The notes under the pieces were generated by a model. The model saw only the letters and a program-made list of their open reading frames with translations, searched no databases and was not told where the DNA came from. From positions 76,136,001-76,200,000 of the forward strand of contig OY740782.1 of NCBI GenBank assembly GCA_963514005.1: a stretch of DNA of 64,000 nucleotides. The letters are read 5' to 3'. Shown here piece after piece: positions 1 through 25,032 of this stretch; the first letter of the stretch is position 1; the number at the start of each line of letters is the position of its first letter. The position numbers and the translations under genes are program-made. This DNA comes from Raja brachyura (lineage: Eukaryota).

Positions 1-164
1 AAGCTGAATGTAGGGACAAAAAATGTACACGTTAGAATTAAGATACATAATGTCTTCTAAGTCTAGAGTTGACACAAGGTATTATATTGTTCATATGACA
101 TTGTATTTCCTTCTATCAGCCATAGAATCGTGATCAGAAGATTGTAAAGATTGAAAAATGAAAC

Positions 165-455
165 ATTGATTATAGGGTAGATAGTCAGAGTCTTCTTTCC
201 AGGATAGAGATGTAAAATACCAGAGAAATAGTTTTAAGGTGTAAGGGGAAAAGTTTAAAGGAGAATTGCGAGGCATGTTTTTGTTATACAGAGTGGTTGG
301 GGGAGGCGATAGAATGGCAGGGTTTGAGGCATTTACAAAGACTAATGAACAGACAGGGAATAGAGGAAATGGACCATTTATAGGCAAACAGAATTAGTTT
401 AGATTGACATTATTGTCAGTGCAAACCCAATGTTTCTGGCTAAATTTTTCTATGT
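165..455 (+). mobile_element. Degraded CR1/HER1-type LINE 3' end
   Basis: Matches the ORF2 end and 3' UTR pattern of younger CR1 copies in this window (gtagatagtcagagtctt...tttaaggtg...aagtttaaaggag...cagagtggt). Boundaries approximate. Confidence 0.7.
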
Positions 456-883
456 TCATTGACTATTAATCATAAACTCCATGTACCGTAGAAATATTTA
501 AGGAATAGATCATTTTGTTTGTTTTGAATCAAGCTTCAAAGCATTGAAAGGGTTGTTGTATGTAAGTTGGAGGGGAATTGCTCTTATGAAATCTGCACTA
601 GCGCACAGCATCTTGCATGCAAACTGCTAAAATCCCATTGTACTCACCTGTGCCATAATTGTAGTTTTAAAAATTATCAACAGTTTCAACAATTGCATAC
701 AAGGCACATACAAGCCTAAAGGCTGGCTATATCTTCCAAATTTGGCTATCGGGCTAATTCTAGAGAATTACGAATTGCCCAAAATAAATCAGTTTATATT
801 TATTTTCACAAATAAATTGGAAAATATTATTTTCTCCCCAAAAGGCTTTCATTACAGAGCCATTTATTGGTCAATAGGCACCT

Positions 884-1019
884 TCTTCTTCTTTCGTGTG
901 GCGTGCACAGCCTAAAGTTGTTGGACAACTTGTTCTATTTGATCTTCCGTTTGTGCACGTCGAGTTGATTGCATTAGTCGAAACAGGGCGGTCCACGTGA
1001 AGGTTGCAATCTTCTACCC
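884..1019 (-). mobile_element. 136-bp short retroposon with (GAA)n tail and 12-bp TSD
   Basis: Direct repeat CAATAGGCACCT at 872-883 and 1020-1031. The minus strand starts GGG and ends aaagaagaaga. CpG-rich relative to its flanks. Confidence 0.85.
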
Positions 1020-2108
1020 CAATAGGCACCTATAACTGAGGTACTTCACTCTATAACTAAGCTTTTTTTAAATGATTTGTATTTAAAAATGTTGCTGTAT
1101 TATTACAGCAAATCATGGTTTTGACAAACTACCATTTCAGACTATCAAATTCAACTATTAAGCTAAAATCAATAACTGATATGAAATTTTGTGCAAGTAT
1201 GAAAGTTAGCAAGTTTTGGTTATGATGTTTCTGTAGTTTGGGCTGAATTCTCATTAGATCCTAGGATTATATTGCATTGCATTTGAAAGTGCCGACCAAT
1301 CTTGAAGAGGATAGAGTGGGCTAATATAAGAGTTTTGATGTGGGAGAAAGAACGGAATTGGGGATGATTGCTGTTACATGTGTTTGTTTGTATTTGATAT
1401 GACTGCATTAGCTTTTATTTTAACCAGAACTGTTATCCCTCTAATACTTATGTTAATAAAACAATCTATGGTCACATCATAGCAGGCTGCTTAATGAAAA
1501 GACAATGATTTTTATTTAAGGTAATATAAATTTGTGAAGACATTTGGGAAATTGCAATATGCTTAAATAGGTAAATAATCTGTGCACTTTTCTTGTAATT
1601 CTCGTAATTCTCCGTAGTGGTGCATTATTGCTGACTAAGAGTGGCCAACATCTCTTTAAGTCCTTGTGGTTATTTGTTTTGAAATCTTGGTGAACCACAG
1701 TTGCCCCATCTCCTAGACCATCTGCATCCATAGTTTAGTCAAACGCACAACTGTAAAGTTTTATGTAAACCAATGAATGTGAAGTTGATTGGTTTTGACC
1801 TTCCTGTGGTGTTGTCTCAATTAGTCATTTCTCAATTGCAAGACTCCCTGGTGAAGGAACTCTCTCTCTCTCCCTGTCAGCAACTTACTGCTTTAACTGA
1901 GCTATGAGAAAACACTATTTTTTGACCGTACAGCTTCTACTTTTTTTTTAGTAAACAAAGAACATGCAGGAGTTCACTGAAATATATCAGCTGCCCTTGC
2001 TTTTTTCTTCCCCATCATATTCTGTATTTAATCACATAATAGCCTATTAATTGTCCAATGTATACATTTTTAAAGAAAGTGCGTGACATGATCCTTTTTG
2101 TTTTGCAG

Positions 2109-2279
2109 AGTATTGCAGAGCAACATCCTCCTTTCCGACAGTAGATTGCATCTCTTCTTGCAGACACAACTAAGCACCACAGAAATTGAGGCCTGCGTCT
2201 CGGGTCTGACCGACTATACAGTTACTGATGCTGTTCATAGGCACGCAACGTCCAACCAAAGGTTTCCTGTCGAGGAAGC
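2109..2279 (+). CDS. SNX10: Sorting nexin 10, penultimate coding exon (end of PX / extended PXe helices)
   Basis: Acceptor tttttgttttgcag ends at 2108. Translation VLQSNILLSDSRLHLFLQTQLSTTEIEACVSGLTDYTVTDAVHRHATSNQRFPVEE matches the SNX10/SNX11 LLSDSxLHLFLQ..IEACV motif; ACVSG and N.RFP favour SNX10. The donor GC|GTAAAA at 2280 is inferred from phase compatibility. Confidence 0.92.
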
Positions 2280-2665
2280 GTAAAAAGTAAAGATCTGTTT
2301 AAATTTCAGATGCAAGGATTTTAATCCTACTATATATTTTTTTAAAGCATTGTTAATTCATCTCATTGTTATAGAGCTGTGACAGCTCATCATAGAAAGC
2401 TGCTCACACCTCCACACTGACTTAATGAATGCAGTGAAAATTCAATTATCTGTATTCTGATTATCTGAATTTCATTTTGTTAGACTTGGGTTATTTCCTT
2501 TTAAATTATCTAGCAAAAAATATCAGACTCTACTGCAAACACCTAATTAAAAGACCAAATTTCCTGTCTCTCTGAGACTGGAGATAATTAAGGTTCTCCT
2601 CTGTTACTCAGGCTTTAACTGTGTTGTAGAAACCAATTTCCTCTTTATTATTTTATTTTCATCAG

Positions 2666-2720
2666 CACTTCATCCTCGGGGCTTGGAAATAGCAGCAGTG
2701 ACAACAACGTGAAGTCGTAA
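2666..2720 (+). CDS. SNX10: Sorting nexin 10, terminal coding exon
   Basis: Acceptor ttttattttcatcag ends at 2665. The phase-2 reading (A)TSSSGLGNSSSDNNVKS* resembles the SNX10 C-terminal SSSSGLG.SS motif. TAA at 2718-2720. Confidence 0.85.
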
Positions 2721-5140
2721 AAGATGAAAATTGCAAGGATCTCTTTTGTGGCTCATTTTCTGTTTTGGGCATGTGTTCCAAATCTGCAGTCTAGACTGTT
2801 CTCCAAATCTAAATCATCCATATAGACCTCATTTGCAAAATAAATTCATGGAAGCTCGGAGCTTGATGCAGTGTTTTTTTGTGTAGATGGGAAAGCCTGA
2901 CTCTGAGCTGTTTTATTTTTAATTGCAACTTCTGGAATGAAAAGAGAGAAAAAGCCTGAAGAAATTTGGGCCTTTTTTTGTAAGACGTTAATTTGTAGAA
3001 AACACCAAAATAAACGACTGCAATTAATTGAAAGAAATTTAAACGTAACTGAAAATGTAAAATGCATTTGATGAATCCTTTTTTTATGAACTGAACACAA
3101 AATTTAATTGCACCTAAATGTTGGCTGTGAGTTTGCATTATGTGTGCTACAAATGGCAATCCCAAAGTTATCATAGTTTGTTTTTAATACAAGAGCTGTT
3201 GGAAAAAAATATTATTTTTGCACATTGAAACTGTAAATCAGCCATTCATAAATTGCTTCTGGATTAATTTATGGAAATTTATCATCCATTGCCTTGATTT
3301 AATAACTTATTCGCTAAGCAAGCCTTTTTTTTTAAGTCTATGAATTTAGCTACATTTGGTTGAGACAGCAAATAAACGGTAAAATAAACGGGTAACTCTT
3401 TACCTTAACTTATCCATTCCATTTAAATCATTCAGTGATTCTGCATTAATTATGGCAGGGTTGGTTTATAGAACTTTCTGTTGAGTTTTATCCTGTAGAT
3501 TCAGGTGGTATTTTACTTGACGACGTGTAAAATTTAACATTTGATTTACTTATCAGAGCAGTGTTATTTTATATGTGAGGAGGAATTTATTTTGGAATTA
3601 CCTAATTTGGTAATTGGGTATTTTTTTCAGAACGTATTAGCTTGTTCTTTGTAAAATATGTTATTAGTCTTCAAATTGTTAAATACACCCTTGGGTCAAA
3701 TAGCAATTCCATTATTTTCCTGAATAGTAAGATGCTTCTCTGGGCAAAGGAATATTGGCCTACTTGCTTGCTAACAATCCTTGCTTGAAGTGTAGGTGTT
3801 GGCATTGTTCGGATACACTTCTAGACAAAAGGCAGCAAAAGAAAAACTGGTTCCATGCGTTACATGAAAATGGCCACTTGGTTGAGATAATAAATGAGCA
3901 CTACTTACGGAACCTTGACACAGCAGGGAGTTATCTTTATTGGAGGGAGAATGTTCATCGAATGTTTATTGTAAATGAGCTTTTTAAAAGAAAATAAACT
4001 GTAATTTCCTCTTTTAAGGATAGATTTTGATTGTAATTTCAGTGTTCTGCCGAAAGCTATTTGTTCTGATATTTCACTTTTTTTTCCATCTTTGGATTTC
4101 AGATTTTAAAGTTAACTGGGAATTTATGAAGCAATATAACTATTGGCCCTCTGCAGACGTATCCTAACTTTCTAAGTACTGCATCTTCTATTTTTACCTT
4201 TAATAAACAAAAATTGGACTTTCTCATGTTACTAAAGAGAACATTTTATTAAACTGTAATCATAATACCATTATTTGTCTCCTGATATTGGAAATCTGCA
4301 CCTGTCTGAGTTTTTTTGAATATGGAGTTGTGAATTATTATTTAGCCTGCTGGTCACAGTGGTCACCTGGTGTTGTCATTGTGAACGTGAAAATAAACTC
4401 TGCAGTCATGGATAGTTTTGCAGAAAATGGGAGAATGAAAGACACTGGAACTTTACGAGATGTCTGATGGGATGCTACACTTCATTTATATAAATGTTTT
4501 ATATTTCAATGTCAATGTTCATGGAATTGTGCAATTACCTTATAATAAATTAATCAAATGTGTATTATTGGTGATGTACTACGAGTTACAAATATAACAA
4601 GGTATTGCAATGACAATTTGAGATGGGGTGTGTGTATAAAGTGAACCTTTGTTCTGATAAACAGCAGGAATTCTTTCATATCTTGAGGTTAAAATGTAGG
4701 AATGCTGTGCAAAATTTTAGATTGTTCTCAAATGTATATGTTTAATAGCAGGAAAAAACAAATCTACAGCTTCTTGTGAGTTATGTACACAGATCCTCTC
4801 TTACTCTATAAGCACTGCAGTAGACCATTAGCACTTAGTTTGTCAACAGAAGCCTGTTCTTCTTGACCATATGGTATTAGGTGGTTTTGAAAGACTTACT
4901 TGATTGTCTAGACCAATTAAAGGACTCTGGCATAGTTTGACAGCTTAGTGGGCTTTAGAATGAAATCTAAATGTCCTTGTGCAGTTTGTCAACTTGACCA
5001 TAAGTCATTACATGTTTTTGTTTGCAGGAGCGGTCTTCCTTTTGAACTGGAAGCAGAATTCATATTTTTCCCTCTTCGTTAATGTAAGATCACTTGGAAT
5101 TGGTAGTACTTTTTTTAAAATGTTGTTATATGTAAATAAA
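2721..5140 (+). other. SNX10: Probable SNX10 3' UTR (end uncertain)
   Basis: AT-rich, repeat-free sequence after the stop, with multiple AATAAA (e.g. near 2840, 3010, 3370, 3995, 4200, 5135). The signal actually used cannot be determined. Confidence 0.45.
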
Positions 5141-5419
5141 AATTGAAGTGCACAAAAGATGTAATGTCATTGATTTACTTTTTTTTGCAGTCATGTTCAG
5201 AAATGTTATTTTTGAGATTTGGGAAGTTTTTAGTTTTATTGTTCTTTATTATAGATACCTGGATGGAGAGATTTGCTATTTGGTAAAATGCAGGCTTAGA
5301 AATGGACATCTGGTCCTTCAGAGCTCATCACATTAAGATTATTTTTCTTTCAGGCTGTACTTGCATTTTCAATATGCAGACGTGACAACAATGTGAAGTC
5401 GTAAAAGATTGCTCACTCT

Positions 5420-5515
5420 TTTGTGTCTATCTACGTGAAACATCGACCATCCTTCTGCCTTCACATGTGCTACCCGATCTGCTGAGTTCCTCCAGCAATT
5501 TGTAATTTTGCTCCA
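5420..5515 (+). mobile_element. Penelope-like pLTR fragment
   Basis: gaaacatcgaccatcc...gctgagttcctccagc matches the pLTR seen at 25005-25129 and after the GIY-YIG relic. Confidence 0.65.
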
Positions 5516-6384
5516 TTTATATACCATCTTTGAAAATGTCTCGAGGGGTATCACGGGAATTGTCAAACACAGATCAAAAGCTTTGCTAATATTTTTGTAT
5601 TTGCAAAACAATGTAGCAGATGCCTTGAAATAGACAACCAGAACAATTTTAGTTTGGTTTACTGATTTTGCAAAACCTAGAAACAATCTCTTCCCTAATA
5701 TTTTGGCTTGATTGCTTTCCATTTGTAATCGGTCTACGATCTCTCCTATTGCAACCCTGTTTTAAATGGAACAATTTAAAATAATAAACGGAAGCACCGT
5801 TTCAAATACTTTTTACCTTCTATAGGCCCAGCATAATTTGTAAGCATGTGTTCTGATTGATTCAGTACTTTGATTCGCTAATAGTTATCCATTGCCAATA
5901 GATTACTTTACCTACCTGTAGCAATTATTTATTTACACATTTTTACTTTTGTACTTTATCATTAAATGTTCAAAGCCTTTTGGGTACCCACTACCAATGC
6001 AAATCCATCTGAGAATTGATTTTGCTTTTTCCAAAATCTTGTCTTTGGTCTCATTCTTGTCACTGGTCATTTATTAGCTGCTTTCCAAATAAGCCACTTG
6101 GCATTTGGTGAAACAACATCTGGATTGCTGCATGCATTTTGGATTGCCTTATCCAGGGATGCATATGGAGTCAGTGCTGTGAGTTTTCACCAGATGGATT
6201 CTTTGGATAAGTGTGTTGACCTTTGAGTAAGATGGATCTATGCTCTCCGGAGTTGAGACAATGAAAGATGTTATGATTGAATCTAAAAGCCTGATTTTAG
6301 TCTGACTGGTAAATATAAACTCTGCATTAAAAATCAACAAGTAATTTAAATTGGATTACAACCAGGTAAGGAGTCAACTATTTG

Positions 6385-6590
6385 GCTCTGAGTGGGGAGA
6401 AACAATTTTTACATACTAGGTTGTGAATCTTGGAAATCTTCCATCCCCAAGGGTAGTTGATCCTAAAGAATTGAATGTGTTCATAGCCGACTTCTATTGG
6501 GATCAAAGGAAGTTATGTTATGAGCAAAATGGATAAGCCATGATCTCACTGAATAATGGCACCATCTACTCAATTTTATGTCTTTCTTTG
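6385..6590 (+). mobile_element. Old CR1 3' end relic
   Basis: ggttgtgaatcttggaaatcttc...agccatgatctcactgaat resembles the CR1 3' UTR in younger copies. Confidence 0.55.
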
Positions 6591-6925
6591 TTGGTCAAAA
6601 CCTGCACTAAATATATAAGATATGAATAGCCTTTATTGTCATTCAGTAAGATATAACATATATATAAATACATATAGTGGTACGTGCAACATGATCTCCA
6701 AATTACCTAGTTTCATTTGAGCTCTATAATGAAAAATGTTTGTCACTCAATTAGGCAAAATAATTAAGAATCTAGATCTTATCTATTCATAATGGTAATT
6801 GTTTTATTATCCTAAATCAACGAGAGAAGGCAAGGTGTGTTGAAAATGATAAGTTAGGATTCATGGTGATCATAATATTTTACTTTCTCCAAGAACATCA
6901 ATACGGTATTAGGTTATTTGGCAGG

Positions 6926-7183
6926 TCACAATTTGAAGTTACGTATTCGCTTGTTTAATTTCAAAACGTGGTCTTTGTAATTGTTAACATTTTTTGTTAC
7001 AGACAATGCAAGCCGAAAACAGGCTTGGAAGTCAGCGATAGACTCAGAGATAACGTCTTTCGGACGGGACCCTCTGGACAGTGCGAAAAAATAAGGCCAT
7101 TGTAAAATGCGCTGGATTGTTGGAAGCGTATCAATTAAGACCCGGTATATCTGATTTTTGACATTTACCCGTTTTGTTTTCCT
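6926..7183 (-). CDS. Candidate exon 2 of an unannotated antisense small-protein gene
   Basis: Minus-strand acceptor cccattaacttttcag (AG at 7185-7184) followed by 85 open codons to a stop, in phase 0 with the exon at 8861-8929. No homology recognised. Confidence 0.3.
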   Translation of the reverse strand, partial: RKTKRVNVKNQIYRVLIDTLPTIQRILQWPYFFALSRGSRPKDVISESIADFQACFRLALSVTKNVNNYKDHVLKLNKRIRNFKL

Positions 7184-8860
7184 CTGAAAAGTTAATGGGA
7201 ATACATTTTTAAGGAACCGCATAAACCCTAAGTGCCCAGTGATAATGATCCTCTTCATGGATTTGTACCAACTCTGCTCCAATTGTACCTGTTCTGACTT
7301 TGGTTACGTGATTAATATAGACGGTCTCAGAATTAAACCAGCGAGCCATGCACAAAAGTGGCCACAACTTTGATAGTTAGGACGGCAGTAGTCCATTAAA
7401 AATATCAAAAGCTTGAACTAAGGTCAATGATCCTGTTCTGAAATTTTCAGATTTTGCACCGAGAATTCATGTAAATGTAGCTTCAAATTTACCACATAAT
7501 CAATTACCATTTCCTACAGAATTCGTTATTGCAAAATCTATTTAGAAAACAAATATATCCTTGGGCTATTGTCTGTAATTTTATAGGATTCATTTGGTCT
7601 GGGCAGAAACGAGGAACTGCAGGTGCTGTTTTGATGACATACGTTTTGATTAACTAAAGATTTCGGTATATTTTCTCCAGTTTAATGCAGATCTGAACTG
7701 GGGTATTGTATTGTCTATGGAGGCAATTGTTCCTTTCTGGGGATCGCCTTGAAGCAGTGCCTAGAGTTCACCCCTTTAGTTGTCCATAACTTTAATCGTA
7801 ACTGAAGTACGAAATACCTCTACTACAACACATTCCATTCGTTATGCTTTTACATCCTAACTTTAATTTTATTCCTGTTTACTTCAGGAATTCCAATAAA
7901 TTGGAATAAGAGGGAAATAAATGACTGACAGCTCACATAATGCGTAGTCTGACAACTCGTTTAACAAACTTTCTAAAGTCGATCTAAATTTATTGCAGGC
8001 ATTCGGCACGTTTCAACGAGAGGATAGAATGGGTAAAAGTTACGAACGTAATTTCCAATTCAGTACTGAATACATAGACCTTGTCTAATTACATTGGAAA
8101 GACTTGAACTGCTGTGTTTTATGCATTGCGGTTTTCACTCACCGCGATTTTCATCAGTTTGGATTAGACACACGAGTCATTAAAGAACACACCGCGAAAC
8201 TTTAAAAGGACCACACGTGTACATAAACTGCCTTCACAATTGCAGATCATCAAAATTGGGAATGAGATTCGGAACACATTAAGATAATATCCGATTGGTT
8301 CAATTGAATTTGATCATCGCACTTTTCAAAGAGTTACATATTATTTTCAGAGAAACTTGCTGTACAACGAAATTCTCCTAGTTATATTTCTCCCCATTAA
8401 ATGTTTTGACCGATCTCCCGTGGCTGTGCCATCAGCGGGTGCTTATAAATAACCGTTTGAATAGCAAACCCTTTCCGTTGTCAAAAAAGCCAGAAACTCA
8501 ACCACCCAATGCACCTCAGTTCGAGGGAGACTCGAATGAAGTTTGTTGCACGCACATCTAGCGCTGTAGATAAGCTAAAGGGTGTTAAACAACAAACTAA
8601 AGTAAAGTGTACTTATTCCTAACATGCAGTGATCCATAGTAACTAAGTGACCCTTGACTACCTTGTACTTGAACTGGCACGAATGCTGTCAAGACAAACA
8701 GAAACGTCATTTCAAAAGCCCAACAACTACCAATTTACGATTCCATTCCTCTGATGAGAATGCAATGTAAATAATGTTTCATGGCACAACAACAAACATT
8801 CCCGAAATAAAGCGGCAAAGCGGTGTACCTGTCTTGTGTAATATCCCATCTCACTCTCAC

Positions 8861-8929
8861 CTCAGTCAGAGCCGGCCCAACGTCAGCCAAGGATTGGACC
8901 TTCCTGCTTTCCTTGCATACACCGACCAT
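8861..8929 (-). CDS. Candidate first coding exon MVGVCKESRKVQSLADVGPALTE
   Basis: ATG at 8929 in context aatATGG-type (A at -3, G at +4), preceded by a CAA-rich leader. Donor GAG|GTGAGA after 23 codons. Lies directly downstream of a promoter motif cluster. Confidence 0.45.
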
Positions 8930-9039
8930 TATTTTTAATGTTGTAATTGTTGTTGTTATTATTACTGCAAAGCTTTCTCTGGCAGTTTATCCCTAAATGC
9001 TGTTTGCCGACGCTGGTGGTATTTCTCTGCCAGTTTCTT

Positions 9040-9160
9040 TTTAGTGGCAGGTAGCGGTAACCCATGGCAACGGCGTGCGAGCCAGCCAGAGACGGCAGTC
9101 AGCATTGGTGCAGCCAGACACAACAAGCCCGCGGGCGGTTGGGGCAGGGAGGGGGCATGA
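9040..9160 (-). promoter_or_regulatory. Promoter: RFX X-box + CCAAT + Sp/KLF GC boxes
   Basis: GTAACC-CAT-GGCAAC at 9057-9071 fits GTNRCC(N0-3)RGYAAC. ATTGG 9104-9108, GGGCGG 9133-9138, GGGAGGGGG 9147-9155. Local GC/CpG peak. Confidence 0.7.
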
Positions 9161-12100
9161 GACACAACAACCCTCCTCTCCCGTAACTTCCAACCACCTA
9201 CCTTTACTGTTACCATTTTAAACCTGGAAACAGTGCAAATATCTGAACCAGTTTGGCAGCATGTACTAATGCCTTTCGTGGGTGTCTGGAAAACCGAACC
9301 ATGATTATTTCTGTACATTAATCCAACAAAGAAACAAACATGAAACAGCACATTTAGCTGGGGATAAAATCAATAGTACGAGCTATTTCCTTTTCAAAAA
9401 AGGAAGTTAGAGATTATATTTTAAATCTTTTGTTATTTTTAGCTCTAACCTTTACACAAATGTAACTTTTGCAAAAGTGTTGCACAAATTAAACATGTTG
9501 TATGTTGTGCTTTACAGCATATCTTGCGTTGTTTCTTAGTGGCTTTTCGACTCAATCATGAGGTTTACCAAACAGAAAAGAAAGTAACTGAGAATAGTCC
9601 ACCGCGTTGATATAATCAACCTATTCTTTATAGAGACAGGATGAACCACTTTCTATTAATCTTTATTGGACCTTTATTATATGTTGAGAATTGTATCAAT
9701 TGATTGCGAGATGAAGCAGCATGCAACACTCGTTTTCTATATTATCTGGTATTCTTTATTATCTCTTGTAATTGGGCAGATCTGTGAATTCAAAGAAGGA
9801 AACACACACGCTCCCTGTTCAATTGTCTTTGAAACCACAAATCAGCCTTCTTTGTTAAAGCGTCTCTGCAACTAGACACAGCCAATAATTAGGTCAGTTA
9901 ACAGAGAAAAGCAGTATAAAATAAATAATCTGACATTTTTTAAGCAAATCGAAGTGATTAAAAATCACATAATATATTTTAAGCATCACGTCCTAATGTA
10001 AACGTGTTTTGTTACAATGCGATTTATTTTCCTGAATGATTGCGCTTTTGTACCTAGCTCTGAGAAATGAGGAAACGGTTTCATGTTTCATTTACATGTG
10101 CTGTTGCTTCCATGGATTATAAAATATATTTAAAAAATCTGAATGGGGCTTCAATGTAGTTCATTAACTACAAACACCCGTCGTTTATATATAAGCGCAT
10201 TGTTCATGGGAAGGCGCATCCACTCAAAATACCGTTCCGCGTCCAGCTGAAAGGTGTTGCAGACACCAACTATTTGTGAGTGGAAATGTTAGTAAGAAGC
10301 ACCGAATGTCTATCTCACACGTTATCAGAATGGCCCAGCGCTGAGCAAGATGTGTGCTCCAGAAGATGCAAAAGATGCATTCATTTTATAATGTAACCAG
10401 CCCGTGCTTCCCAATGCAGATCTCCTCGAGCTCCGTATAATCAGTTGCTGTCGTACGCTAAAGAGGAAATTCTGGTTTCATTATCATAGTCTTGGATAAT
10501 ATCGGACCTGCACGTTTTATCAAACGAGTGTAATTGTTTTCTTAATCGATATGTCTTATGATGCACGAATAAACTTCCGTGACCTTATTTTTTGTTTGCA
10601 TATGACTGTCCTGAAACCAGATATTGGCAGTCGAATTAGCACTGATGCACGTCAAAGAATGGTTAAATTGAAAATACGGATCGCACGATATTAAAATTCG
10701 AGAGAAAAATAAACAGATGCTATGGTCCATACATGTAATAAGAGCCCAGAATATCAGAAGGCAAATTAAACCATGCATATTCGGTTAATTCAAAACTGTT
10801 TATCACGCATTTCTATTTCAGGACCTATATACCTATGTGTGTATACATAGATATATATAGTAAACATGTAATATATTATGCGTGTGTGTATACCTTACAT
10901 AAATACGTTTAGAAACCACGCGATTTTATGAAGAACAAATCAGATATCGACATTTTTTGCATAGATTCAACCCTGTAGTATATTTATGATAAGCAGATGA
11001 GCCATCTAATTTTCGTGGATCAATTGATTATTTTGTCGAACAGTGAGCAAATCCATGTTAGAGCCTCCATTCGTCGAACACGTCTTTCCTCTGGGTGTCA
11101 CATTAGGTCGCAGAATGTGACATTTTTAAAACGCCTGCTCAGCGGATTTACAGTGTGTACGTATTAGGTGAAAAAAAAATATCAATTTATAGTGCATTAA
11201 TTTTAAAGTGCGGAATAGGTCAAAACCTTCTCCCGATTAGATTTTAACATTGCTACATTTAGATTTATTTAATATTGAATACAAAACTTGGTAAAAGAAC
11301 GTGGCAGATTAGAGTGACAATAGATTCATTGGGGCGGATTGCGATTGTGTGCAAAGTTCTAATGTTTTCGCTTTCAGGAAATACATAGACAGCGTTATTG
11401 ATTTGCCTACTTATTCTATGATGTAAACACTATTAGAACATGGTGGCGAATTATGCAGGATATAAGATGATATAGCCTGGTTGGAAGGTGGGAGCACCTT
11501 GTCCCACTGGAGGGGCTGGGCGAGATTCACCCTTCCCAGAGCCAGGGGACTGCGCTTGAATTCCTGAAAAGTAACATAATTGATCACACTTTGGCTTTGG
11601 TGCTGAATAAAGAAGGTTTACACCAATGGCCACGCAATTTATTGCCGAAGAAAAATAGGATATCTCCAAAATAAACTCTCAATTTTTATTTTCTTTATCC
11701 TTTCAAGCAATCTATCAATGACAGCTTTTACTTCCGAAGTTATGGCCGTAGCAGTTATTGATTTTCTTAAATTATTGTTATTGCATTAGCACTTAATACG
11801 TGTTTTTAATAATTGATTTTACAATTTTTTATAGCTCCTATCATATGAATCAAGTCCATATTACGGTTACGTATATTACAAGATGAAGATTTCTTGGGGT
11901 TTTGCTTTGTGTAAATCAAGACAGGAAAATCGGTTTTACCGATGAGGGACATGAGCTGATTTAATTTAAGCTCTTACATCGAGAATAACATTATGCAAGG
12001 TCTTCTTTCTTATCTCTTCTGGACGTCGGTACTTCGTAAATTTGGAACCATTAGGTTAGCGAGCACAAAGGAAATGTATCTATCTACCTGAAGCCGGGTC

Positions 12101-14018
12101 AGAGAGAGCGACAAGGGCCAGAAACTCTCTTTGCGGATATGCACCACGGCAATGGAAAACTGCCTGTGTGAATTTGTGCCCTTAACTTTACAGTTACAGC
12201 ATTTTGAGTGTTTAAACTAATTTAAATTGGCCAATTAAATCAGTTGAAAATGAGCCTATTGAAATTGATGTAGGCATGTAAACTGGCTTTGAGGCACAGC
12301 CTCCCTAATGAAACACTGTAATGAAAACAACCAGCTGTTCACAGCGCACTTTTCTCTTTATTGATCCTCTGAGGGCCGTGGCAGCTCTTTGCCACATTAA
12401 AAAAAAATGTTTCAAAATTTAAACACTCTTCACTCATCTTACGGTTGGTATGTTTATTTTAATTCATATTGAAATCCACAAACTGCCGTATCCTCAGATA
12501 AACCCGACTTAAACAATGTCCCTAGTTTCTGTGAGTCACAAAGGAAATTATCCGGTTTCACCTGGTATACCAAGCAGATCGAGATCCATCAGGCAGCCAG
12601 CCCCGCTGGCCCGGGAGCTGGGTGCAGATTGATGTTGCAGTGGTACACACCTGGCCCAAGCTCATTGCTTAATAGGCTTATTACACTGTCACTCAATCAC
12701 TTTTGTTTCACCAATGGCAAGAGACTCCTTCAGCTGGCAGGAGTGAAAAACTGCACTATTTACATTGTGTTATATTCTGAAATTACCTGTAGGGTAACTT
12801 CACACAACTTGGGTTTAGTTTTTGTATTTTCCCAAAGTGTAGTTGTCAAGTATGAGGGAAAGAACACAAGGTCAGTATATCAATTCACTCAAGTACTGTA
12901 CCACATCTACCAGCTGCTGTACACAATGGTCACTGTCAGACCAAAATGACTAACTATATAATGGACCAAGGCAGAAGCATGATTAGACAGCACTGCTGTC
13001 TCTTTGCACTCTAACCTCTCAGTGTATAAGTTAAACATGCTAATGAATCTATTTGATGTGTCACGTAAAACTGATGCAGTTTAAATCTTGATGTTGATCT
13101 CACTTTTAGTTGACACTGTTCCTTTTAGCTGGTTTGTTCAGGTCAGATCCCAATTCATACAAAAAGGTGTTGGACAAGCAATGCAACTCAACACCATCAT
13201 CAGAGATAGAAAAGCCAAATAAAACAGTGTAGTGTAGTAGATCTGGCTGCAGGCATTTTCATTTTGGACATGAATATTTAGTATGGAGACAAAAGTATGA
13301 AAATAAATTCTGAAGAGACAAACACTCCTCTGATACAGGACATGTCCAGATTTAAGTCGAGGAATCATTTCAAAGATAAAATTCTGTAGCCTCAATATAA
13401 AGTATGAAACAGCTTATTTGTGATGATGAGTCGTGCAGTCATTAAATCAATAATGTTTGAAGAATGAACCTCAGCATTTTCTAACCTAAAGAATTATCAC
13501 TATTTCATTTGTTCAAGTGCTGTAAAGGTTAATATCTAAGGTATGTTATGATAGAAAAAGGCAACATTCTTTACTGACATTTACCATTTGCTGCAGCAGA
13601 TGGTCTTTCCTTAAGTGGTGCTTTTTGTGCAATAACAAAAGCCAAAAGGCCTCATTGAAACACTGTGTCATGAAGTAATGGAATATGTAGGGTCTAGGCT
13701 GGAAATGCACAATGAATCGAGAAGGTTTTTATGTAATTAATTGACCAGTCTTAAATAGTTACTGTGATGTAAGGAATTTGGAACTCATTAATTTGGGCCC
13801 TGACAGTTTTCATATTAGGACTGGCAAAAATGAATTGGAACGCTCATTCTTTGTAACAGTTAGAATTTTACATGACAGTGAAGTTTAGCAGAAAAAGACC
13901 CTGTGTCAGAACATAGCTGCCTCGCCTGCAATCATCAGCTCTGCTGGGTAATAAAAGGTAATGAAAAAGACGGAAAATAATAACAGAATTCCTTGATGTT
14001 ATATTAAAGGGAAACAGA

Positions 14019-14032
14019 CCAGCAGAGGGCAG
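14019..14032 (+). promoter_or_regulatory. CTCF core motif
   Basis: CCAGCAGAGGGCAG fully matches CCASYAGRKGGCRS. A weaker GGGGGCAG site follows at ~14048. Confidence 0.6.
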
Positions 14033-14184
14033 CTGTCACTACCTTTTGGGGGCAGTGATGCTGTAAACTGCAACTTAAAGATGAATAGAATTTATAAGGA
14101 AAGGAGTGTTGATCTGGATCTATACTCTAGTCCTGACAAGTTAATTACAATATTACTCAAGCCAATCAGGAGAGCCATACCTAG

Positions 14185-14830
14185 CTAGTATATATTTCAA
14201 GAGGATTAGAATACAAAAACAGGGATGTAATGCTGAAGCTCTATAAGTCGCTGGTAAGGCCGCATTTGGAGTATTGTGAGCAATTTTGGGCACCATATCT
14301 GAGGAAGGATGTGGTGGCTCTGGAGAGGGTCCAGAGGAGGTTTACAAGAATAACCCCAGGAATGAGTGGGTTAACATATGATGAGCATTTGATGGTGCTG
14401 GGCCTGTACTCGCTGGAGTTTGGAAGGATAAGGGGGGACCTCATTGAAACATATCAAATAGTGAAAGGCTTGGATAGAATGGATGTGGAGAGGATGTTTC
14501 CACTAGTGGGAGAGTCTAGGACTAGAGTTCATAGCCTCAGAATTAAAGGACGTTCCTTTAGGAAGATGAGGAGGAATTTCTTTAGTCAGAGGGTGGTGAA
14601 TCTGTGGCAGTCTTTGTCCCAGAAGGCTGTGGAGATCAAGTCAATGGATATTTTAAAGACAGAGATCGATAGATTCTTGATTAGTACACATGCCAAGGAT
14701 TGTGGGGAGAAGGCAGAATGGGGTTAGGAGGTTAGGGCTATGAGAGATAGATCAGCCATGATTGAATAGCGGAGTACACTTGATGGGCCAAATGGCCTAA
14801 TTCTGCTTCTATCACTTATGACCTTATGAC
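14185..14830 (+). mobile_element. 5'-truncated CR1 LINE (ORF2 C-terminus + 3' UTR, cttatga tail)
   Basis: ORF 14230-14727 LYKSLVRPHLEYC..W.P...LERVQRRFT...RGDLIE...FFSQRVVNLW. Tail cttatgaccttatgacc. Confidence 0.95.
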
Positions 14831-14959
14831 CAACTCTTACTACTAGCCTTTTAATTTAGAGGTGAATAGGCAGAAATGACCTATGTTGAAATGGAGGCCT
14901 CTTTCTCATTTTACTCACACCCTGACACTACCTACTACTAAGTCCACTCAGCAGTGTCA

Positions 14960-16030
14960 TACTCATACAGTGACTAAACAGGCCCGTTGGCCCAATTCAT
15001 CTACACTGACATAGGTGCCTATCTACGGTAGTTTCATTTGCTTGCATTTGATTCCTCTAATCCTTTCCCATTCATGCACTGGCTTAAATATCTTTTAAAT
15101 ATTGTCGTTGTACCCACCTTAACCACTTCTTATGGCAACTCATTGTAAATATGTACTACCCTCATTGTGAAGATGTTGCCCATCCGGTTCCTATTATCTT
15201 TCCCCTCCCAGCTTAAACCTATGCCATTTAGTTCTTGATTCCCTAACCCAGGGAAGAAAGATTACATCCCCTCTCTATGCTCATCATGATATTATCCACG
15301 TCTGTAAAATTGTCCCTCAGTCTCCTATGCTCTAAGAAATAAAGTCTAAGCCTGTCAAATCTCGCACTCTATCTCTCAAATCCTGGCAACATCCTCATTT
15401 TTTTCTGTACTCTTTCTAGTTTAATGACATATTTCCTATGCAGGATGACCAAAATGACCACTATGTGCACAACGTCTACCTGTGATACCACTTTCAGAAA
15501 ACGTATACTCCTAGGTCCCTCTGTTCTACAACATCCCAGGGTCCTTCATTTCACTGTGAAATTCCTATCCTACCTTGACCTCCCAAAATACAGACCTCCA
15601 TTTAGCTGTATTAAAATCCATTTGCCATACTTTGGTCCACCTTGACAGTTGATCATTATCCCACTGTGATTCCTGATAACCTTCTTCACAGTCTATAATA
15701 CCAACTATTTTAGTATGATCTGCAAATTCACTTACCATGTCTTATACATTCTCAACCAAATCATTGATATAAACCACAAGCAATAAAAGCGCCAGTATCC
15801 CCTTATCCCCCCTCCCCTTTTTGTCTTGTTTTTGCACTGAGTAGGAGCAGTTTTTAATCTCACTGTACATGTGTATAGTGACAATAAAAGGCATTCTGAT
15901 TCTGATTCAGTACTGACCCCCTGAGGTATAGTATTAGTCATAGATTTTCAGTCCAGTAAAACAATCTTCCTCCATCACCCTCTGCTTCCTACCATCAAGC
16001 CAATTATGTTTCCAGTAAGCCTTTACCATG
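14960..16030 (-). mobile_element. Old CR1 LINE fragment
   Basis: Reverse complement of the CR1 3' UTR (aggcccgttggcccaa) and degraded RT region (tttagtatgatctgcaaatt = KFAD). Confidence 0.8.
15810..15910 (+). mobile_element. Rex1/Babar-type LINE 3' tail nested in CR1
   Basis: cactgtac...gtgacaataaaaggc followed by (attctg)n. Confidence 0.6.
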
Positions 16031-16954
16031 TTGGATAATAAAGATAATAAAGAGCATGTATTTGGAAAATATAATAAATGTCTAGTAAAAATATGTATAC
16101 ATTTTACTTGGGATTGACGGTGTGTAACTAGAACTGGACCTATATTAAAAAGTTGTTACATTTGTTTAAATCATTAAAATAGGGAGGGGATCTCAATATA
16201 TTTCAATTCAATTATAGCAAGCATTCACTTTAAAATCAATTTAACCCCATAAAGAACAGGTTTTGCCTATGATTCACTCCAAAAAAAAAGCATACCTATA
16301 ATACTTTGAAGAGTATCTCATAATTTACAGGAGCAAACATTAAATACTCTAGAGGAAATTTGAATGACCTATAGGCTGCTCTTACTTTTCTCTTTAAATC
16401 ATTTTTATATGCTACATCTGTTAATAACTGAATGCTATTTCCTTTGCTCAGTCCAGAATGATGGTCCAGAACTAACAGATATATTCCTTTGAATGTTTCA
16501 TTATCATTAGTTTAGCTTTTACAGTTTTGTCATTTTCATGTCGTCCTTTCTCTTCATACACTGTAGGAACTTAGGTTTGCATGAAAAGAGATTTGTCTGT
16601 ATTTCCTTAGGAGCAAATTGTTTAGAAATGATGTATCAAACTAGCCACAGTGCCATATGCAAACGTCTGTCAAGATTTTATCTAAAACTTGAATGAACAA
16701 GTTTTATTTGAAATTTCAGAAAATGAAATATTATTTGTAAAACACAGGCTGACTGGTTACATCATTAAACAGATTTTGTAAACTTATGTGTTGTCTTGCA
16801 ACTTTTAAGTTCATATAAATTTTACATCGCTGCATAGTGTTTGCTGGACAGCTAATTAGCTAAAGTCAAATAGATGGTGATTTGCTGTGTGGTGTGTGTT
16901 GTTAATTATATAAACCGATTATAGAGACACGGGGAGCTTCCTTTGAAAAATACT

Positions 16955-17232
16955 TGAAAATGAGACCTGCCTGCCCTCTTGGGTAGATATAAATGATTAC
17001 ACAGCATTATTCTGAGAAGAGCAGGGGGAATCTACCGATATCCGGGCCAACACTTCTTCATCATCAAACATCAGTAAATCTGTTTATTTAGACATTGCTA
17101 TTTATGGGACCTTGCTGTGTAAAAATCAGCTGTTCAGGAGCAAAAGAGCCCACTCCTCATGAGCAATGAGTAAAGCACATTAGGTTTATTCATGATCATT
17201 GAAGTAGTTTTGTAAAGGCAAGTTCTTCCTTT
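16955..17232 (+). mobile_element. Deu-domain SINE (SacSINE1/AmnSINE1-like) relic
   Basis: gagaagagcaggggg...gggccaacac...cattgctatttatgggaccttgctgtg resembles the Deu central domain. Confidence 0.7.
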
Positions 17233-17589
17233 TTATCAATTGTTAGATGAGAGCTTCAGATTATCTTTAAAATAAAATAATCCTGTGAGTAGATATGCTT
17301 TAAATTCAGATCTGTATGAAGCATAACCAGTACCTTAAATTGTGCTGTTTGATTAAAATATATGTTAGCTTAATGTGCTAAATGAAATTCCTGTGCTCAT
17401 TTTCTAGAGGTATGACTTGATTAATCTGAAATGGGGTAAAGCTTCTGCTAAAGTATTAGAGAGAAATCTGAGACAAATATAGTGAGTGTTTATTTGGAAT
17501 TCATCCATGCTGTGAATTTGAAGTCTGTATATTTTCAACTAAAGTGCATGTAATTAGTTATTTTGCAGATCATAAATATCCTAGGTTTG

Positions 17590-17890
17590 ATCGTTGCTGT
17601 TTTCGCTGAACTCCAGGCTGGAAGTGAGGGTGTGACATTTGATCTGACCTTCCCCAGGCTAGGAAGAATAAAAATCAGCCAAGGTTTACCTGTTTAAGGT
17701 TTTCATCCATTATCTCCTACTGATAAGTGTATTTGTTGTACTGGCTAAAGGATTGGATAGAATTTAACTTTGATATTGACAGCTAATTTATGAATGAAAT
17801 GGCATCTAAGAATCACAGTACTGTATATGTTGAATAGATGAGCAATGGCCACATGAGAGAGAACTGCTGATGCCTATGGAACCATATAAT
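17590..17890 (+). repeat. Ancient SINE-like interspersed repeat (family uncertain)
   Basis: cccaggctaggaag..aaaatcagccaagg and gatgcctatggaacc motifs recalled from chondrichthyan repeats. Not verified. Confidence 0.35.
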
Positions 17891-20800
17891 TTACCACCAT
17901 CAGGAAAGATAGGGGCAGAAAAAGACATTGAGTAAAAAGTGAGAAACAAAATTATTGACATTAAATTATTAAATGTCTTTGTGGAGGCAAATACTATACT
18001 ACACTGTTGTTATCATACGTGATTTGCCTGGAATTGTTTTTCTGGATGAGTAGTTGAGAGGAGGTTTGGCTGTGTGTAAGTAAAGATCCTGGGTCAAACC
18101 TATAGGGAAAGGGAGAGTCAATAGCTCTTGAGCACATTATTATTTGTGATGGTGCATTATCAACATGAGCTAATGACAATTATTACTTAAACTTTAGTTA
18201 GACAACTTATGGTAGTAACATATTTATTTCTACTTAGGATGTGAATGCACACTATTGAATGAGGATAGTGACTGTGATCTGGAGTTAGTCTCATACAATG
18301 CATTTGGAATGAGGGATGTTTACACTGTTTGTAAATTGATGAAATGGATAAACCACACTGCATCAATCCATTGGTAATGACTGCCATTTTCCAATTCTGT
18401 ACAGCGGTATTTTGAGATTTGATATAATATAAATTATAGTAGGCAAATATATCCAGCTCTTCAGGAATAGCTAGAATCTCCAGCAATCAGCAATGAATCT
18501 CCCTGTTGATGTATAAGCAAATTAGGAGGAAAAAAATAGGAAAATTAAACAAAAGACTGACTGGCCCAATGCCCTCACCTAGGATCACTGCCAGTGGACT
18601 GGGGAGAGGAGGTGAAGAATGAGGCTGGCTAAGCAGACACAGGAAACCAACTATGAAAATCAGAATATAAATAGTTAAAATGGCTAAGGAAAGAAATGAA
18701 TTAAAATGGAGAAAGGGGATGACGGAGGCAGTGAATTGCATTTTGCGATTGCATCAGGTTTGCTACTGCTTGAACACGTGGAGCTCCAACACGTTTCCTC
18801 CCTCTGAATTATTACGTGTTGAATACTGAAATATGGAGGTATATGCTCTGAGGTTATAAACATGCCTGATTGAAGCAAACATGAAGGGATGTTGTTTCAC
18901 CGGTTTAACTGTGTGTTAATATTCTTCTAGGAACATTTAAACCTTGAAGGAAATATAACTGTTGGTGGATTGCAGATGGTGAGAATAACTTTGGAGCGAT
19001 GATTACATGTGACTAAGGGATGTTATGGGGAGTGTTACTGGAAAAAAGTAACAATGGGATTGGAAAGACTAGAGTTGGTGGGAGGTATACACATGTTTAA
19101 ATATGGTGCCCACTTGTCAGTGCTGAGAATGGAAAGTAAATTTAGAAGCTGAAGGTACTCACAGAGCATATCTAAGAGAAAACAAAATCTTGGTTCTTGC
19201 AGTTATATTTAAAAAATGTTGATAGAGGATGAATATAAATATTGCAGATTAGTTTAATTGTGGCTGTTTTATACAAATGCAATGCACAATAGAGATTTTG
19301 GAAATTCCAATGTATTTTTTCAGCTTTCCTCTCTCTCAGTTGACTTTATGTTAATAAATTAAATTACTAATATATTCATTATATTATTGAATTAATATAA
19401 TTACATGAACAGAATTCTTTTTTTTTTTCATATGATCTAGAAGAAATATTTTTTTCATATGATCCAGAAGACATTAATGAATATTTGGATACATTTCTAA
19501 ATTTAATCATGACCAAGGAATGATTTAGGGAAGTGTTACAAAAGAATGTAAGACTGGCAGACATTGCTGGTATGTTGCATAGTAATGTATAATACAGTAT
19601 GGTTCAGTAGTAAGCTGTAAGTCAATTTCTAGGTCAAGAGACAGATGTTCAGCTTCAGGCTGTGAGTGGGAGAATTTACCAGTGAATGTATTCTCAGGCT
19701 CAGACTTCATTTGGGATGCTCTGATGGAAGGATAACCAAACACATTGCTGTCACAGACTGCTGCACATACTCACTTATTTAACTACTTGATACATTCATT
19801 ACTCCCCCTGCACAAAGATTTTTTTGCATTATGACTCCTTTAGCTTTATGAAGCTAAAAATAAAGTTGTTTAAAGCTTTTAAAAACAATTCTTTTGAGTA
19901 AATGTTTGTAGTTGTGTAGATGGTTGAAGAGTTTGTGCAATTAGTTGAACCCCCAGCTTATGTTGCAGCAGGTCTGCTAGTAAGTACACTTAACTCTGAG
20001 GTCACCTTCAATTATGTCTTTATGAGGACAAAGAAAAAAATATTATCAGTATTAGCAAAGGGTTAAAATTGATCCTGGCATAAAGGTGGTCTGCTATTAA
20101 AAAGAAGTGTTACATTTCATGGTTAATATAATGGTCATCACTGTAAGAAAGAGTGTTTCCTCAGGAAGCAGCCTGTCCAACAACGCAGAACAGTAAATGC
20201 TGGAAATTCTTAGCTGTTCAGGGAGTATCCGTGGAGAGGGGAGCAGCGTTAATGTTTCAGGTTGATGACCATTCATTAGTAATCAAAGATACTTTCCACA
20301 ATCATCCTGCTTTTTCCTTGCCTTCAGACGTACCAAATAAATGAAAGTATTTTAGCAATTGCAGGTGGGGGAACGGAGGTCTTATTTAGAGCTCTTTCTG
20401 CACAGTAACACACGATAAATTTGAAATATGGTTCACTGGCAGAACAAATAATTTGGGACAAGGACAATTCAAGAAATGTATGTAATCCTGGTTGTGGGAA
20501 TTTTGTAATTTCTGGGCATTAGGGTCAGCTCGTGAGACAATGATGAATTTTAGCAGGGCCTTTGTGTTTGTAATGATCTTCATTAAAATTTAATTAGATT
20601 CAAATGGATATTAAAATATTTAATTTTACGATTGCATGAATACCATAAATAGAATATGCTATGGAGAGCAGTGAACTCTTCTTTTAATTCCATCTCATGA
20701 AATGAAACAGAACTCAGTTATTGAAATAAAAGTTCATTTTACTGTGCCAAACCCTAACTTTAATTGAGTCCACATTAGCGGACATTTCATAATTTTGCTT

Positions 20801-20974
20801 ACTGTATTAAATAATGATTTGCATTTATTATTTTTATTGCATCATGTGTGAACTTGAGGCTGTCAACCATGCCGAGGATAATTGGCTGGATTATATTTGT
20901 CACCAAAATGCCACGGCATAACTTGCCAAGTTGGTGGTGCAGTTGATGGCCATGCGATCACTGCAACATGTGTC

Positions 20975-21705
20975 AACCATGGCACAGCTGGAACTCTCTC
21001 CCCTGTTAGGAAGTTGACGGTTCAAGTAAATTAGTGTACTAATTTTGACGCTGAGACTGTACTACACTGAATGTAGGGCCTTGTCATTTCTGGATGCAAT
21101 TCTAATTAATGCTCTCGCCAATCATCAGATGAATGCTAGAGATGTGATAGTAGTCGGCAAGGAGGTGCAGCGGTAGAGTTGCTGCCTTACAGCGCCAGAG
21201 GTCGGGTTTTTTCCTGACTATGGGTGCTGTCTGCATGCAGTTTGTACGTTGTGGGTTTTCCCCTGGTGCGCCGGTTTCCTCCGACACTCCAAAGACATAT
21301 AGGTTTGTAGGTTAATTGGCTTCAGTAAAGGTTGTACACTGTCCCTAGTGTGTAGAATAGTGCTAGTGATCAGGGATTTCTGGTTGCCATTGACCCGGTG
21401 GGCCGAAGGGCCAGTTTCTGCACTGTATCTCTAAATTGATAAACTCTAAACTAATAATATATTTCAAGGAAGAGCAGTGTGTAGTATTTAGTATCCTATC
21501 TAAAACATCCTTTAATCAACATCACTAAAAACAGGTTACCTGGCCATTGTAACATTGCTGTTTCTGGCAGCCTGCTGTGTGTAAATTGTATACATAATTT
21601 CTTATGTGACAGCATTGATCATGCTTAATTTATTTCATTGGCTGTAAAATGCTTAAAAATGTTCATACATTTGAAAGACATTAAATAAATGCGATCTTCT
21701 TTTCC
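20975..21705 (+). mobile_element. Deu-domain SINE interrupted by an HE1 SINE
   Basis: Degraded head with ggttcaagt at ~21020. The Deu domain resumes after 21452 (ggaagagcag...cattgctgtttctggcagcctgctgtg) and ends aataaatgcgatcttctttt. Confidence 0.65.
21155..21452 (+). mobile_element. HE1-type V-SINE
   Basis: tRNA-like head (gcagcggtagagttgctgcc), V-domain (ggtgcgccggtttcctcc..ccaaagac..ggttaattggc), CR1-like tail gggccgaagggcc...ctaaact. Confidence 0.9.
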
Positions 21706-23204
21706 TTCCTTTTAATCAAAATTAGAATAGGTAAAATTCAATCTTTTGTTGAGGACTGGTTAAAAGATGTCATTCGATTATCAATACCACAATACCAGTA
21801 TAGTGAAGCATTGTTAGTTTTAAAGTGATAGCTATCAATAATGAAACAAATATTAGACCATACTATCTGTTCCAGTAATAGAAAATAAACATTTTAAAAC
21901 ACTCAGCAGGTCAGTAGTCAATGAGAGATTAGGAGAAAGATGGTCACCTTTCATTGAGAATCTAGCTATTGATAGAGGACAGCTAAGTTTATCAGGATGA
22001 AGGCCTCCAAATATATCCTAGTCAAGACCCTTCTAAGACGAGTCAGGCCCCAGCCTATGTGGATTTCTCTGGCAGGTATGGATTATGGTTCACTTCTTTA
22101 CAACCAAGAACTTATGTTTTCATGTCAATTAACACTACCAATTTCACTCTGAAATAGCGAAATGAAATGAGAATATCATCCTTTCCTCGTGAAGTCATTA
22201 ATGATTGATAGCTGACCACATAGTTGATTATTTTACTCTTAGCACTTCTTCAAAAATTTAGATTTTTTAAACAGCTGGTAAATCTTTCCATGAGAACATT
22301 TTGTTATCTACAGGTTGCCATGGAGCTTATAGTCTCAGCCAGTCGAGTCCCTTCCATAGTTTCAGCATTCCAGGCAGTCTGTGTTAGTCTCAGACACAGA
22401 TTTCCATCAACATTTTTCCCAGCATGCCTCTCAGTTATCTTTCTGTGGCTACCCATATGTTCACATTACCAATATATTCCTGCACGTGTTAAAAGTAAGG
22501 AAAATCAGCATAATTTGGAGAATATATAACTTGAAACCTGAAATACTTCCAAATGTCATCGGCAACTAAAAATTACAAAGCGTTTTGCAGCAAAACCTCT
22601 CATCCCCTTTTACCTGTAACTAGATGCACAGTCCTCCACTCTAATTTTTTTTTTCCTGGTTTGAATACATAATTATTTTTTCTCTAGATGTTTCATCAAC
22701 TGCTACAATGACAGGCAGTGAGATTTGGCATTAGGGGAAGATGGACATGTGGGTTTCATGGAGTAGGTTACTGTTGAATTTGTGCACAAACTTGGAACAA
22801 TAATTTCTGTGCTGAGAAAACCATGTTCCATCACTAGTGCAAATGGTCATCAGGCACAACCCACAGCTGCTTTAAGTTTCAAAGCTGAAGGAGTGAACTG
22901 TGATTTCAATCACTTGTTACTTTTCCCATTTTCTCAGTCAATACCTTGTGTTTTTTCACTGTAAACCCATATTTAGATATTGATTTAGATTTCAGTCTGT
23001 GTCTGTTTGTATCACATTTTTCATTCTTCCCTTAAGTAGAGCATAACCTTTTCATTTTTATATATTTAGCAAAATGTTTTAATATATTTAGTTAAATGTG
23101 GATGTTAGTGAAATTAAAATACAAAGTAAAGGGATTATTATCCTTGCTGTTAATATTATAAACAATGAATATTTATTTTCAGTAGTTTAATGTATTTGTA
23201 ATTT

Positions 23205-23375
23205 TTCTTGGACTTTTCCTCTGGATATTTACGCTACAATGTTGAAAACTATATTCTGCACTCTGGTATTTTTCTTTTTGCTCTACCCATTGTACTTGTG
23301 TACAGCTTGATTGTATTCCCGTTTAATATTATCTGATTTAACTAGATAGCACGCAAACAAACATTTTCAGTGCTG
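23205..23375 (+). mobile_element. Rex1/Babar-type 3' UTR relic
   Basis: ttgattgta...gatagcacgcaaacaaacattttca resembles the tail at 53120-53377. Confidence 0.5.
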
Positions 23376-23624
23376 TTGAAGTAGTAGTGCAACACAGGCA
23401 AGAAAATGAAAGAAAGTAGATTCTGAAAAATTATGCGAGTAGCATAGAGCAAATGTCAACAAGGATTTAGCATGTAAGTCAGCAGGATTATACCAAGTTT
23501 TTGTTTGCATATTCTGATATGATACAAAAAGGAATGCATCTTAAGAAAGAATTTTAATGGGCCGTTACCCTTTCTCATTCAAGTAAACAAATGTTAACTT
23601 ATGAAGATAGACTTTCATGATATT

Positions 23625-24233
23625 TTCTTCATAGGCAGTACCCCAGGATTGAGGAGGACTTGCTTCCATCATGGTGTTGTGGCTTCTACATTGGCCAAAG
23701 AGGCCAATGTGAGACCCGTATAGGCTCTTCCACACAGACAGGAGGTGCTTGTCAAGGCAGGTGGGCGGGTAGTTTGTGGAAGAAGTCTGCCACTGACACA
23801 GGGCCTCTGTGCTCCTGATGCATGTCCTGGAGGTTCCCAATACCTTCCTGAATGCTCCTTCTCCAATCTGAGTAGCCAGGGACAGGAGATTCTCAAGAGT
23901 CAGTGAGTATGTTGCACTTCTTTAAGGAAATTCTGAGCACATCCTTGAAGCTGTTTCTGTATTTACCTGGCAATCTTCTCTTACAACAGAGTTCTGAAAA
24001 GCGTTTCAGAGGTCTAAGAATAAGTATGCAGTCAAAGAAGCCTGCCAGGGGTAGCTGACTGAGTGTAACAAGGGCCTCGGTGTCAGGGATATTGGCTTGG
24101 GAAAGGGAGTTTCCTTCCAGTGAACATGGAGGATTTTGCCAAAACATTATTCGTGACATTTTTCCAGTGCCATGACAGGCCGGCTCTAGGTGATCCAGGT
24201 CTGTGAAGTGTATGGGACTGCTCAATCACTGCC
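23625..24233 (-). mobile_element. RTE-clade LINE 3' part (degraded)
   Basis: Minus-strand translation SQANIPDTEALVTLSQL...GKYRNSFKDVLRISLKKCNI...SCPW and HIGLF match the RTE/BovB-like C-terminus. 3' end ggaagcaagtcctcctcaatcctgggg..tgcctatgaag. Confidence 0.8.
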
Positions 24234-24930: not shown

Positions 24931-25004
24931 CTTCCATTTAATGACTGGATGAAATTGATGTTGTACTTCCTGTGGATTGCAGAGATCAACAGCAAACATG
25001 TTGT

Positions 25005-25032
25005 CTGAAGAAGGGTCTCGACCCGAAACGTC
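25005..25032 (+). ncRNA. Minimal type I hammerhead ribozyme motif
   Basis: CTGAAGA-A-GGGT(CTCG)ACCC-GAAAC-GTC: CUGANGA core, stem II, GAAA, palindromic ACGT stem III and GUC cleavage triplet. Stem I is weak in this copy. Confidence 0.75.

Follow-up and report, generated by a model that had tools for sequence, protein, structure and literature searches.

A CpG-rich island with an RFX X-box 3' of SNX10: a predicted lncRNA promoter rather than a conserved small-protein gene

In the 64-kb stretch of Raja brachyura DNA analyzed here (the window), the region 3' of SNX10 is best explained, with a probability that we put at about 0.6, as an RFX-driven lncRNA promoter within a predicted non-methylated island, rather than as a gene for a conserved protein. 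The promoter is probably real, and selection appears to act on the promoter together with the first exon, which argues that the likely role of the locus is cis-regulatory, as an active promoter or an enhancer-like element for neighboring genes. The 108-codon reading frame on which the original prediction of an ancient microprotein was built probably arose by chance, through a single additional T in one of the two organisms compared, organism A.

The SNX10 flank and its CpG-rich island

The window consists of AT-rich vertebrate DNA with LINE reverse-transcriptase fragments. Translation and a PDB match placed the last two coding exons of SNX10 on the plus strand at 2109-2279 and 2666-2720. The best PDB match of the exon at 2109-2279 was SNX10, at 60.7 bits compared to 55.8 bits for SNX11; a shorter, 44-residue query from the SNX10/SNX11-like exon gave an ambiguous PDB result, and the last exon (2666-2720), too short to match, gave no PDB match. 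A candidate poly(A) signal for SNX10 lies at 5135, and the CpG-rich stretch containing the X-box sits just 3' of the gene. The bit scores and exon coordinates show the identity of SNX10 and its convergent layout relative to the predicted minus-strand unit. In the same flank, 5371-5409 is a 90% copy of the end of the last SNX10 coding exon (2688-2725) with its own acceptor-like tract near 5353, and is possibly a duplicated alternative last exon of SNX10.

A search of six frames found no SKAP2-like motif in the 64-kb window, and closeness to a Hox cluster is not evident within it. The link to a Hox cluster therefore rests on the human gene order around SNX10, which we take to place the gene near one. 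Elsewhere in the window, LINE reverse-transcriptase 3' fragments, which are ordinary repeats, occur at 55265-56284, 14185-14727, 24484-24813, 57090-57683 and 59317-59622, and the longest of them (55265-56284) matched Pfam RVT_1. The GC-rich segment 30108-30801, in which CpG is raised, matches its reverse complement at 68% identity over ~700 bases and resembles a palindrome derived from a transposon; there are shorter palindromes at 31080-31148, 31326-31370 and 34929-34991. There were 0 Rfam matches in the 64-kb window.

CpG content, which was also profiled in 500-nt steps, defines an AT-rich but CpG-rich island at 6901-12500 (5.6 kb, no strand assigned). Its CpG observed/expected ratio (o/e) is 0.83 at 38% GC, well above the background of 0.25-0.35 in the long flanking blocks (0.35 in 1-6900, 0.25 in 12501-29900 and 0.32 in 31401-64000), and we predict from this ratio that it is a non-methylated island. 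Zebrafish non-methylated islands are described as having high CpG o/e at background GC (PMC3583005), and the island is like the intergenic non-methylated islands of cold-blooded vertebrates in that source in its high CpG o/e, a GC content like that of its surroundings and its distance from a coding start. The same source places 45-64% of lncRNA starts within non-methylated islands; the islands described there mark lncRNA starts or enhancers, whereas the island reported here is a prediction from sequence. Upstream of the promoter, the island continues for over 3 kb (9600-12500); this part, in which o/e peaks at 1.38 (10501-11000) and no long frame is found, could contain additional elements or a start on the plus strand.

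Promoter motifs, the predicted first exon and local conservation

On the minus strand, the promoter motifs are found where they had been placed: GC/GT-box-like elements at 9155-9133, which we take to be of the Sp/KLF type, a CCAAT box of the NF-Y type at 9108-9104, an RFX X-box at 9071-9057, and the leader. The CCAAT box is a common motif, with 20 copies in the island, and is weak evidence alone. Taking the RFX consensus to be GTNRCC-N0-3-RGYAAC, the X-box at 9057-9071 (no strand assigned) matches exactly, as expected of an RFX target, and is the sole exact match in the 64-kb window; first-order resampling gives a chance expectation of 0.43 matches per window and 0.039 in the island. Letters 1-10 of the X-box on the minus strand are identical to the RFX palindrome given in PMC11344851. 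Most functional X-boxes are found less than 500 bases from a start site (PMC5838959); X-boxes co-occur with CCAAT boxes, and expression of RFX1, 5 and 7 is broad (PMC11344851). The X-box described here lies within ~150 nt of the predicted first exon, with the CCAAT box 33 nt upstream. The locus thus shares a palindrome-type X-box and a CCAAT box with the RFX target promoters of these two studies, but the targets presented in the portions of PMC11344851 and PMC5838959 used here are protein-coding, whereas this locus is probably noncoding. We also observed a second RFX-like cluster at 45026-45260, outside any CpG-rich island, with a perfect 14-base palindromic X-box-like site (45026-45039), a near-match (45218-45231) and CCAAT boxes near 45120 and 45251, which is a possible RFX enhancer.

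The predicted first exon spans 8861-9050 on the minus strand, its start site being a prediction as well, and it carries the ATG at 8929, the 23 codons and the donor GAG/GTGAGA after 8861 of the original prediction. The ATG is the first in the exon and has a strong context (A at -3, G at +4) behind an A-rich (CAA-rich) leader; such contexts are common (330 of 2590 ATGs), as are runs of 23 open codons (746 of 2585), and each is weak evidence alone. The donor is the sole minus-strand member of its class between 650 and 24279, and with 19 such sites in 128 kb, counting both strands, the probability of finding one within 300 nt is ~0.04; its distance from the X-box is ~200 nt. Over the first 2 kb, there are four donor-like sites on the minus strand and none on the plus strand, while polyadenylation-like hexamers number 6 and 7, respectively, indicating that the strand asymmetry holds for donors only. 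Candidate polyadenylation signals (AATAAA at 6808 and 6637) lie on the minus strand in 6632-6808.

To compare lineages, contigs from four public runs were aligned on 5550-12400; all were DNA-like, and each spanned the stretch in one piece. Two runs (X1 and X2) come from one sample of organism A, which may be the source of the window, and two (X3 and X4) from two samples of organism B in one study. Organism B is ~99.3% identical to the window, differing at 49 letters and by 13 gap letters over 6851 positions. An apparent joint between 6643 and 10211 (side 21) was dismissed as a short repeat match. A search for public data covering 5550-12400 gave six entries from two studies, none recorded as RNA, a result that speaks neither for nor against transcription. 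Among the changes listed, the longest block without a substitution or indel between A and B is 8570-9618 (no strand assigned), which covers the promoter, exon 1 and the donor. A longest gap of at least 1049 among 48 randomly placed changes has a P of 0.016, given that the changes outside the list lie beyond 10720. We infer that these further changes (11 for X3) fall in 10720-12400, since the list ends at 10720 with less supported rows included, and 11-12 changes in the remainder fit the average rate. Two of the 48 changes, at 10363 and 10366, are also present in organism A's own runs, which slightly weakens this P value; all four runs have C at both positions where the window has A, and the window letters are likely errors or a rare allele. 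Within the narrower interval of the original prediction, 8850-9160, A-B conservation taken by itself does not reach significance (P 0.11). The promoter and first-exon part of that prediction is supported by the rarity of its motifs, the raised CpG, the asymmetry of splice sites and the conservation of the surrounding block.

In the proposed mechanism, the island would stay unmethylated and open, and RFX, with NF-Y and Sp factors, would start polymerase II near 9050, with the donor-like (U1) sites of the minus strand favoring elongation in the minus direction. Heading toward the 3' end of SNX10, the predicted RNA would join the donor at 8861 to any of several acceptors and terminate near 6.8-6.6 kb, at the AATAAA at 6808 or 6637. 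Such an RNA would end short of the SNX10 signal at 5135, making direct antisense overlap with SNX10 doubtful.

The 108-codon frame in two organisms and in a related protein

The original prediction joined the first exon to a second at 6926-7183 on the minus strand, and its elements are present in the window: an acceptor AG ending at 7184, then 85 codons, open in organism A only, to a TGA at 6928-6926, for 108 codons in all. The acceptor is one of 19 acceptor-like sites downstream of the donor, and the probability that at least one of 19 would be open for 85 codons is 0.11 outside repeats (4/658) and 0.27 with repeats included (14/848); exon 2 is not above chance expectation. Two segments of the proposed intron, 7596-7640 and 7884-7922, match many other contigs in all four runs and are a small dispersed repeat.

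The T run at 7086-7091 on the minus strand varies in length between lineages; it also serves as the pyrimidine tract for a second candidate acceptor (AG 7075-7074). X1 and X2 keep the run as it is in the window, indicating that the frame is real in organism A. In both runs of organism B, X3 and X4, one base is missing at 7086, inside exon 2. This deletion shifts the frame after exon-2 codon 32, the exon-2 part then ends at 61 codons, and the proposed splice would give a product of 84 codons with an altered C-terminal part. The frame is therefore not intact across the two organisms, and a frameshift is what the original prediction had itself named as evidence against a protein. Apart from the frameshift, exon 2 has 4 A-B substitutions compared to 1.8 expected; three of the four are synonymous in the proposed frame (P 0.14), as are 3/3 downstream of the indel (P 0.046, post hoc).

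A conserved protein would also be expected to have relatives among distant vertebrates or to belong to a known family. The only protein relative found was P0001, from a Logan contig, which was the 1 match among 2 candidates in the search with exon 2. A search with a 125-aa frame gave 3 matches, of which P0002 and P0003 are unrelated repeat proteins. No protein homologue was found for the exon-1 frame, 0/19 candidates matched a promoter-spanning 135-aa frame, and an exact protein look-up found 1/3. Among 5.8 and 1.84 billion proteins there was no named vertebrate homologue; each exon was used as a query of its own, and exon 1 offers just 23 codons, which limits the sensitivity of these searches. 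The proposed protein matched no Pfam family, and its one PDB match (E 0.48) was dismissed as chance. The ESM Atlas gave no usable match for either exon (recognition 1200 and 1799), a result that shows neither absence nor novelty.

P0001 starts at an internal ATG at 7100 and follows the frame of organism B with one extra codon, so that its lineage, judged by the protein, would be out of frame with the window upstream of the variable T run. It reads through the stop at 6926. Its residues differ from those of the window at 8/53 positions before the stop and at 5/24 from the stop on (Fisher P 0.53), giving no indication of better preservation in the supposed coding part. Over exon 2, depth is level at one contig per run, which favors an orthologue in a more distant species over a repeat copy as the source of P0001. 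An ORF beginning at the internal ATG 7100 was considered and rejected, as it has 18 codons in A, 57 in B and 82 in P0001. Each exon-2 frame that was examined is disrupted, or differs in length, in one or more of the three lineages; as expected of a spliced lncRNA, the locus shows no conserved coding frame among these. The frameshift in B and the shared frame of P0001, which lacks the stop, refute the 108-aa protein as a conserved gene, unless B and the P0001 lineage both lost the frame. The surprising claim, that of an unannotated ancient protein, does not stand.

Alternative readings and comparison with known lncRNA loci

It is possible, at a modest probability, that the locus is instead an RFX-bound enhancer or orphan non-methylated island giving rise to short unstable RNA only, with its splice sites incidental. 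In PMC3583005, 17% (mouse) and 40% (zebrafish) of intergenic non-methylated islands are putative enhancers, 15% (mouse) and 9% (zebrafish) are known non-coding starts, and a broad shape, such as the 5.6 kb observed here, is linked to Polycomb-regulated developmental loci. The second cluster of X-box and CCAAT motifs at 45026-45260 also speaks for an enhancer. However, the strong donor 200 nt past the X-box (P ~0.04) and the four-to-none strand ratio of donor-like sites speak against such an element, as do the GC box-CCAAT-X-box order and a conserved block that, among the listed changes, spans the first exon too. The same block, the longest free of A-B changes among those listed, makes it most unlikely that the motifs are a chance collection within inert CpG-rich DNA: 0.43 X-box matches are expected per window, and CCAAT boxes, ATG contexts and short frames are all common, but this X-box lies within the island and beside a rare donor.

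Two protein-coding readings were also weighed. A young, lineage-restricted small protein, encoded by exon 1 with another exon or through a splice from 8829 to 7073, is unlikely. The latter splice joins an alternative donor (8823-8831, minus strand, phase 2, exon end 8829) to acceptor 7073, giving 82 codons that are open in both A and B; the indel then becomes intronic, with the variable T run in the pyrimidine tract of the acceptor, the A-B changes in its exon are synonymous in 3/3 cases (P 0.046), and the first ATG is strong. However, it requires the weaker donor and was chosen post hoc from 212 donor-acceptor pairs, several of which yield 75-87 codons in both organisms. Moreover, P0001 has 7 mostly radical residue changes over the 48 codons in question, has lost the stop and is equally diverged past it, and protein searches found no homologue outside P0001. 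That an 82-residue young protein of this kind is made from a jawed-vertebrate-old RFX promoter shared with human SNX10-AS1/T-RECS is very unlikely. The original model, an ancient conserved 108-aa basic protein with exons 8929-8861 and 7183-6926, is barely credible. Its frame is open in organism A in both A runs, and 3/4 A-B substitutions are synonymous, but the 7086 deletion is present in both B samples and P0001 follows the frame of B, the database searches gave no named vertebrate homologue, and an 85-codon frame behind 1/19 acceptors is expected by chance with a P of 0.11-0.27.

The preferred reading, an RFX-driven lncRNA promoter, can be compared with the human locus. Human SNX10-AS1 is an antisense lncRNA whose start lies in a CpG island, a few kb beyond the 3' end of SNX10; we take it to be AC004540.4 / T-RECS (ENSG00000225792). 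The RNA predicted here is convergent with SNX10, a layout that may correspond to the human one; it would probably end before 5135, and its overlap with SNX10 is uncertain. AC004540.4 / T-RECS is described as a two-isoform, nuclear-enriched lncRNA from chromosome 7 and stated not to be conserved in other species (PMC10882889), and the AC004540.4 promoter is reported to be methylation-sensitive (PMC9102946). A genomic position for AC004540.4 is absent from the supplement of PMC10882889 and from the portions of PMC5514141 and PMC7076085 used here.

The Hox-locus lncRNAs HOTTIP, HOXA11-AS and HOXB-AS3 likewise have promoters more conserved than their RNA bodies (PMC8293171, PMC5853149), and some Hox lncRNAs have reported shark counterparts (PMC8293171). 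These lncRNAs lie at Hox loci, whereas the present locus belongs to no Hox cluster evident in the window. There were 0 matches to SNX10, AC004540 or ENSG00000225792 in nine supplementary files of PMC5853149, and SNX10 and SKAP2 had 0 matches in the consulted text of the Hox lncRNA review PMC8293171. Antisense non-coding cDNAs are common in the elephant shark (PMC3466250). Within the open-access literature, we found no description of the SNX10 3' locus in cartilaginous fish.

The locus illustrates how a difference of one base in a T run is enough to give a single species a convincing frame of 100 codons. LncRNAs conserved in their promoter only are already known, and the usefulness of an orthologous promoter would therefore be modest. 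Should this promoter correspond to that of human SNX10-AS1, the regulatory origin of a cancer-linked lncRNA that has been called non-conserved would be very old, and the X-box would indicate a regulator of SNX10-AS1, assuming that this is the lncRNA described in PMC10882889.
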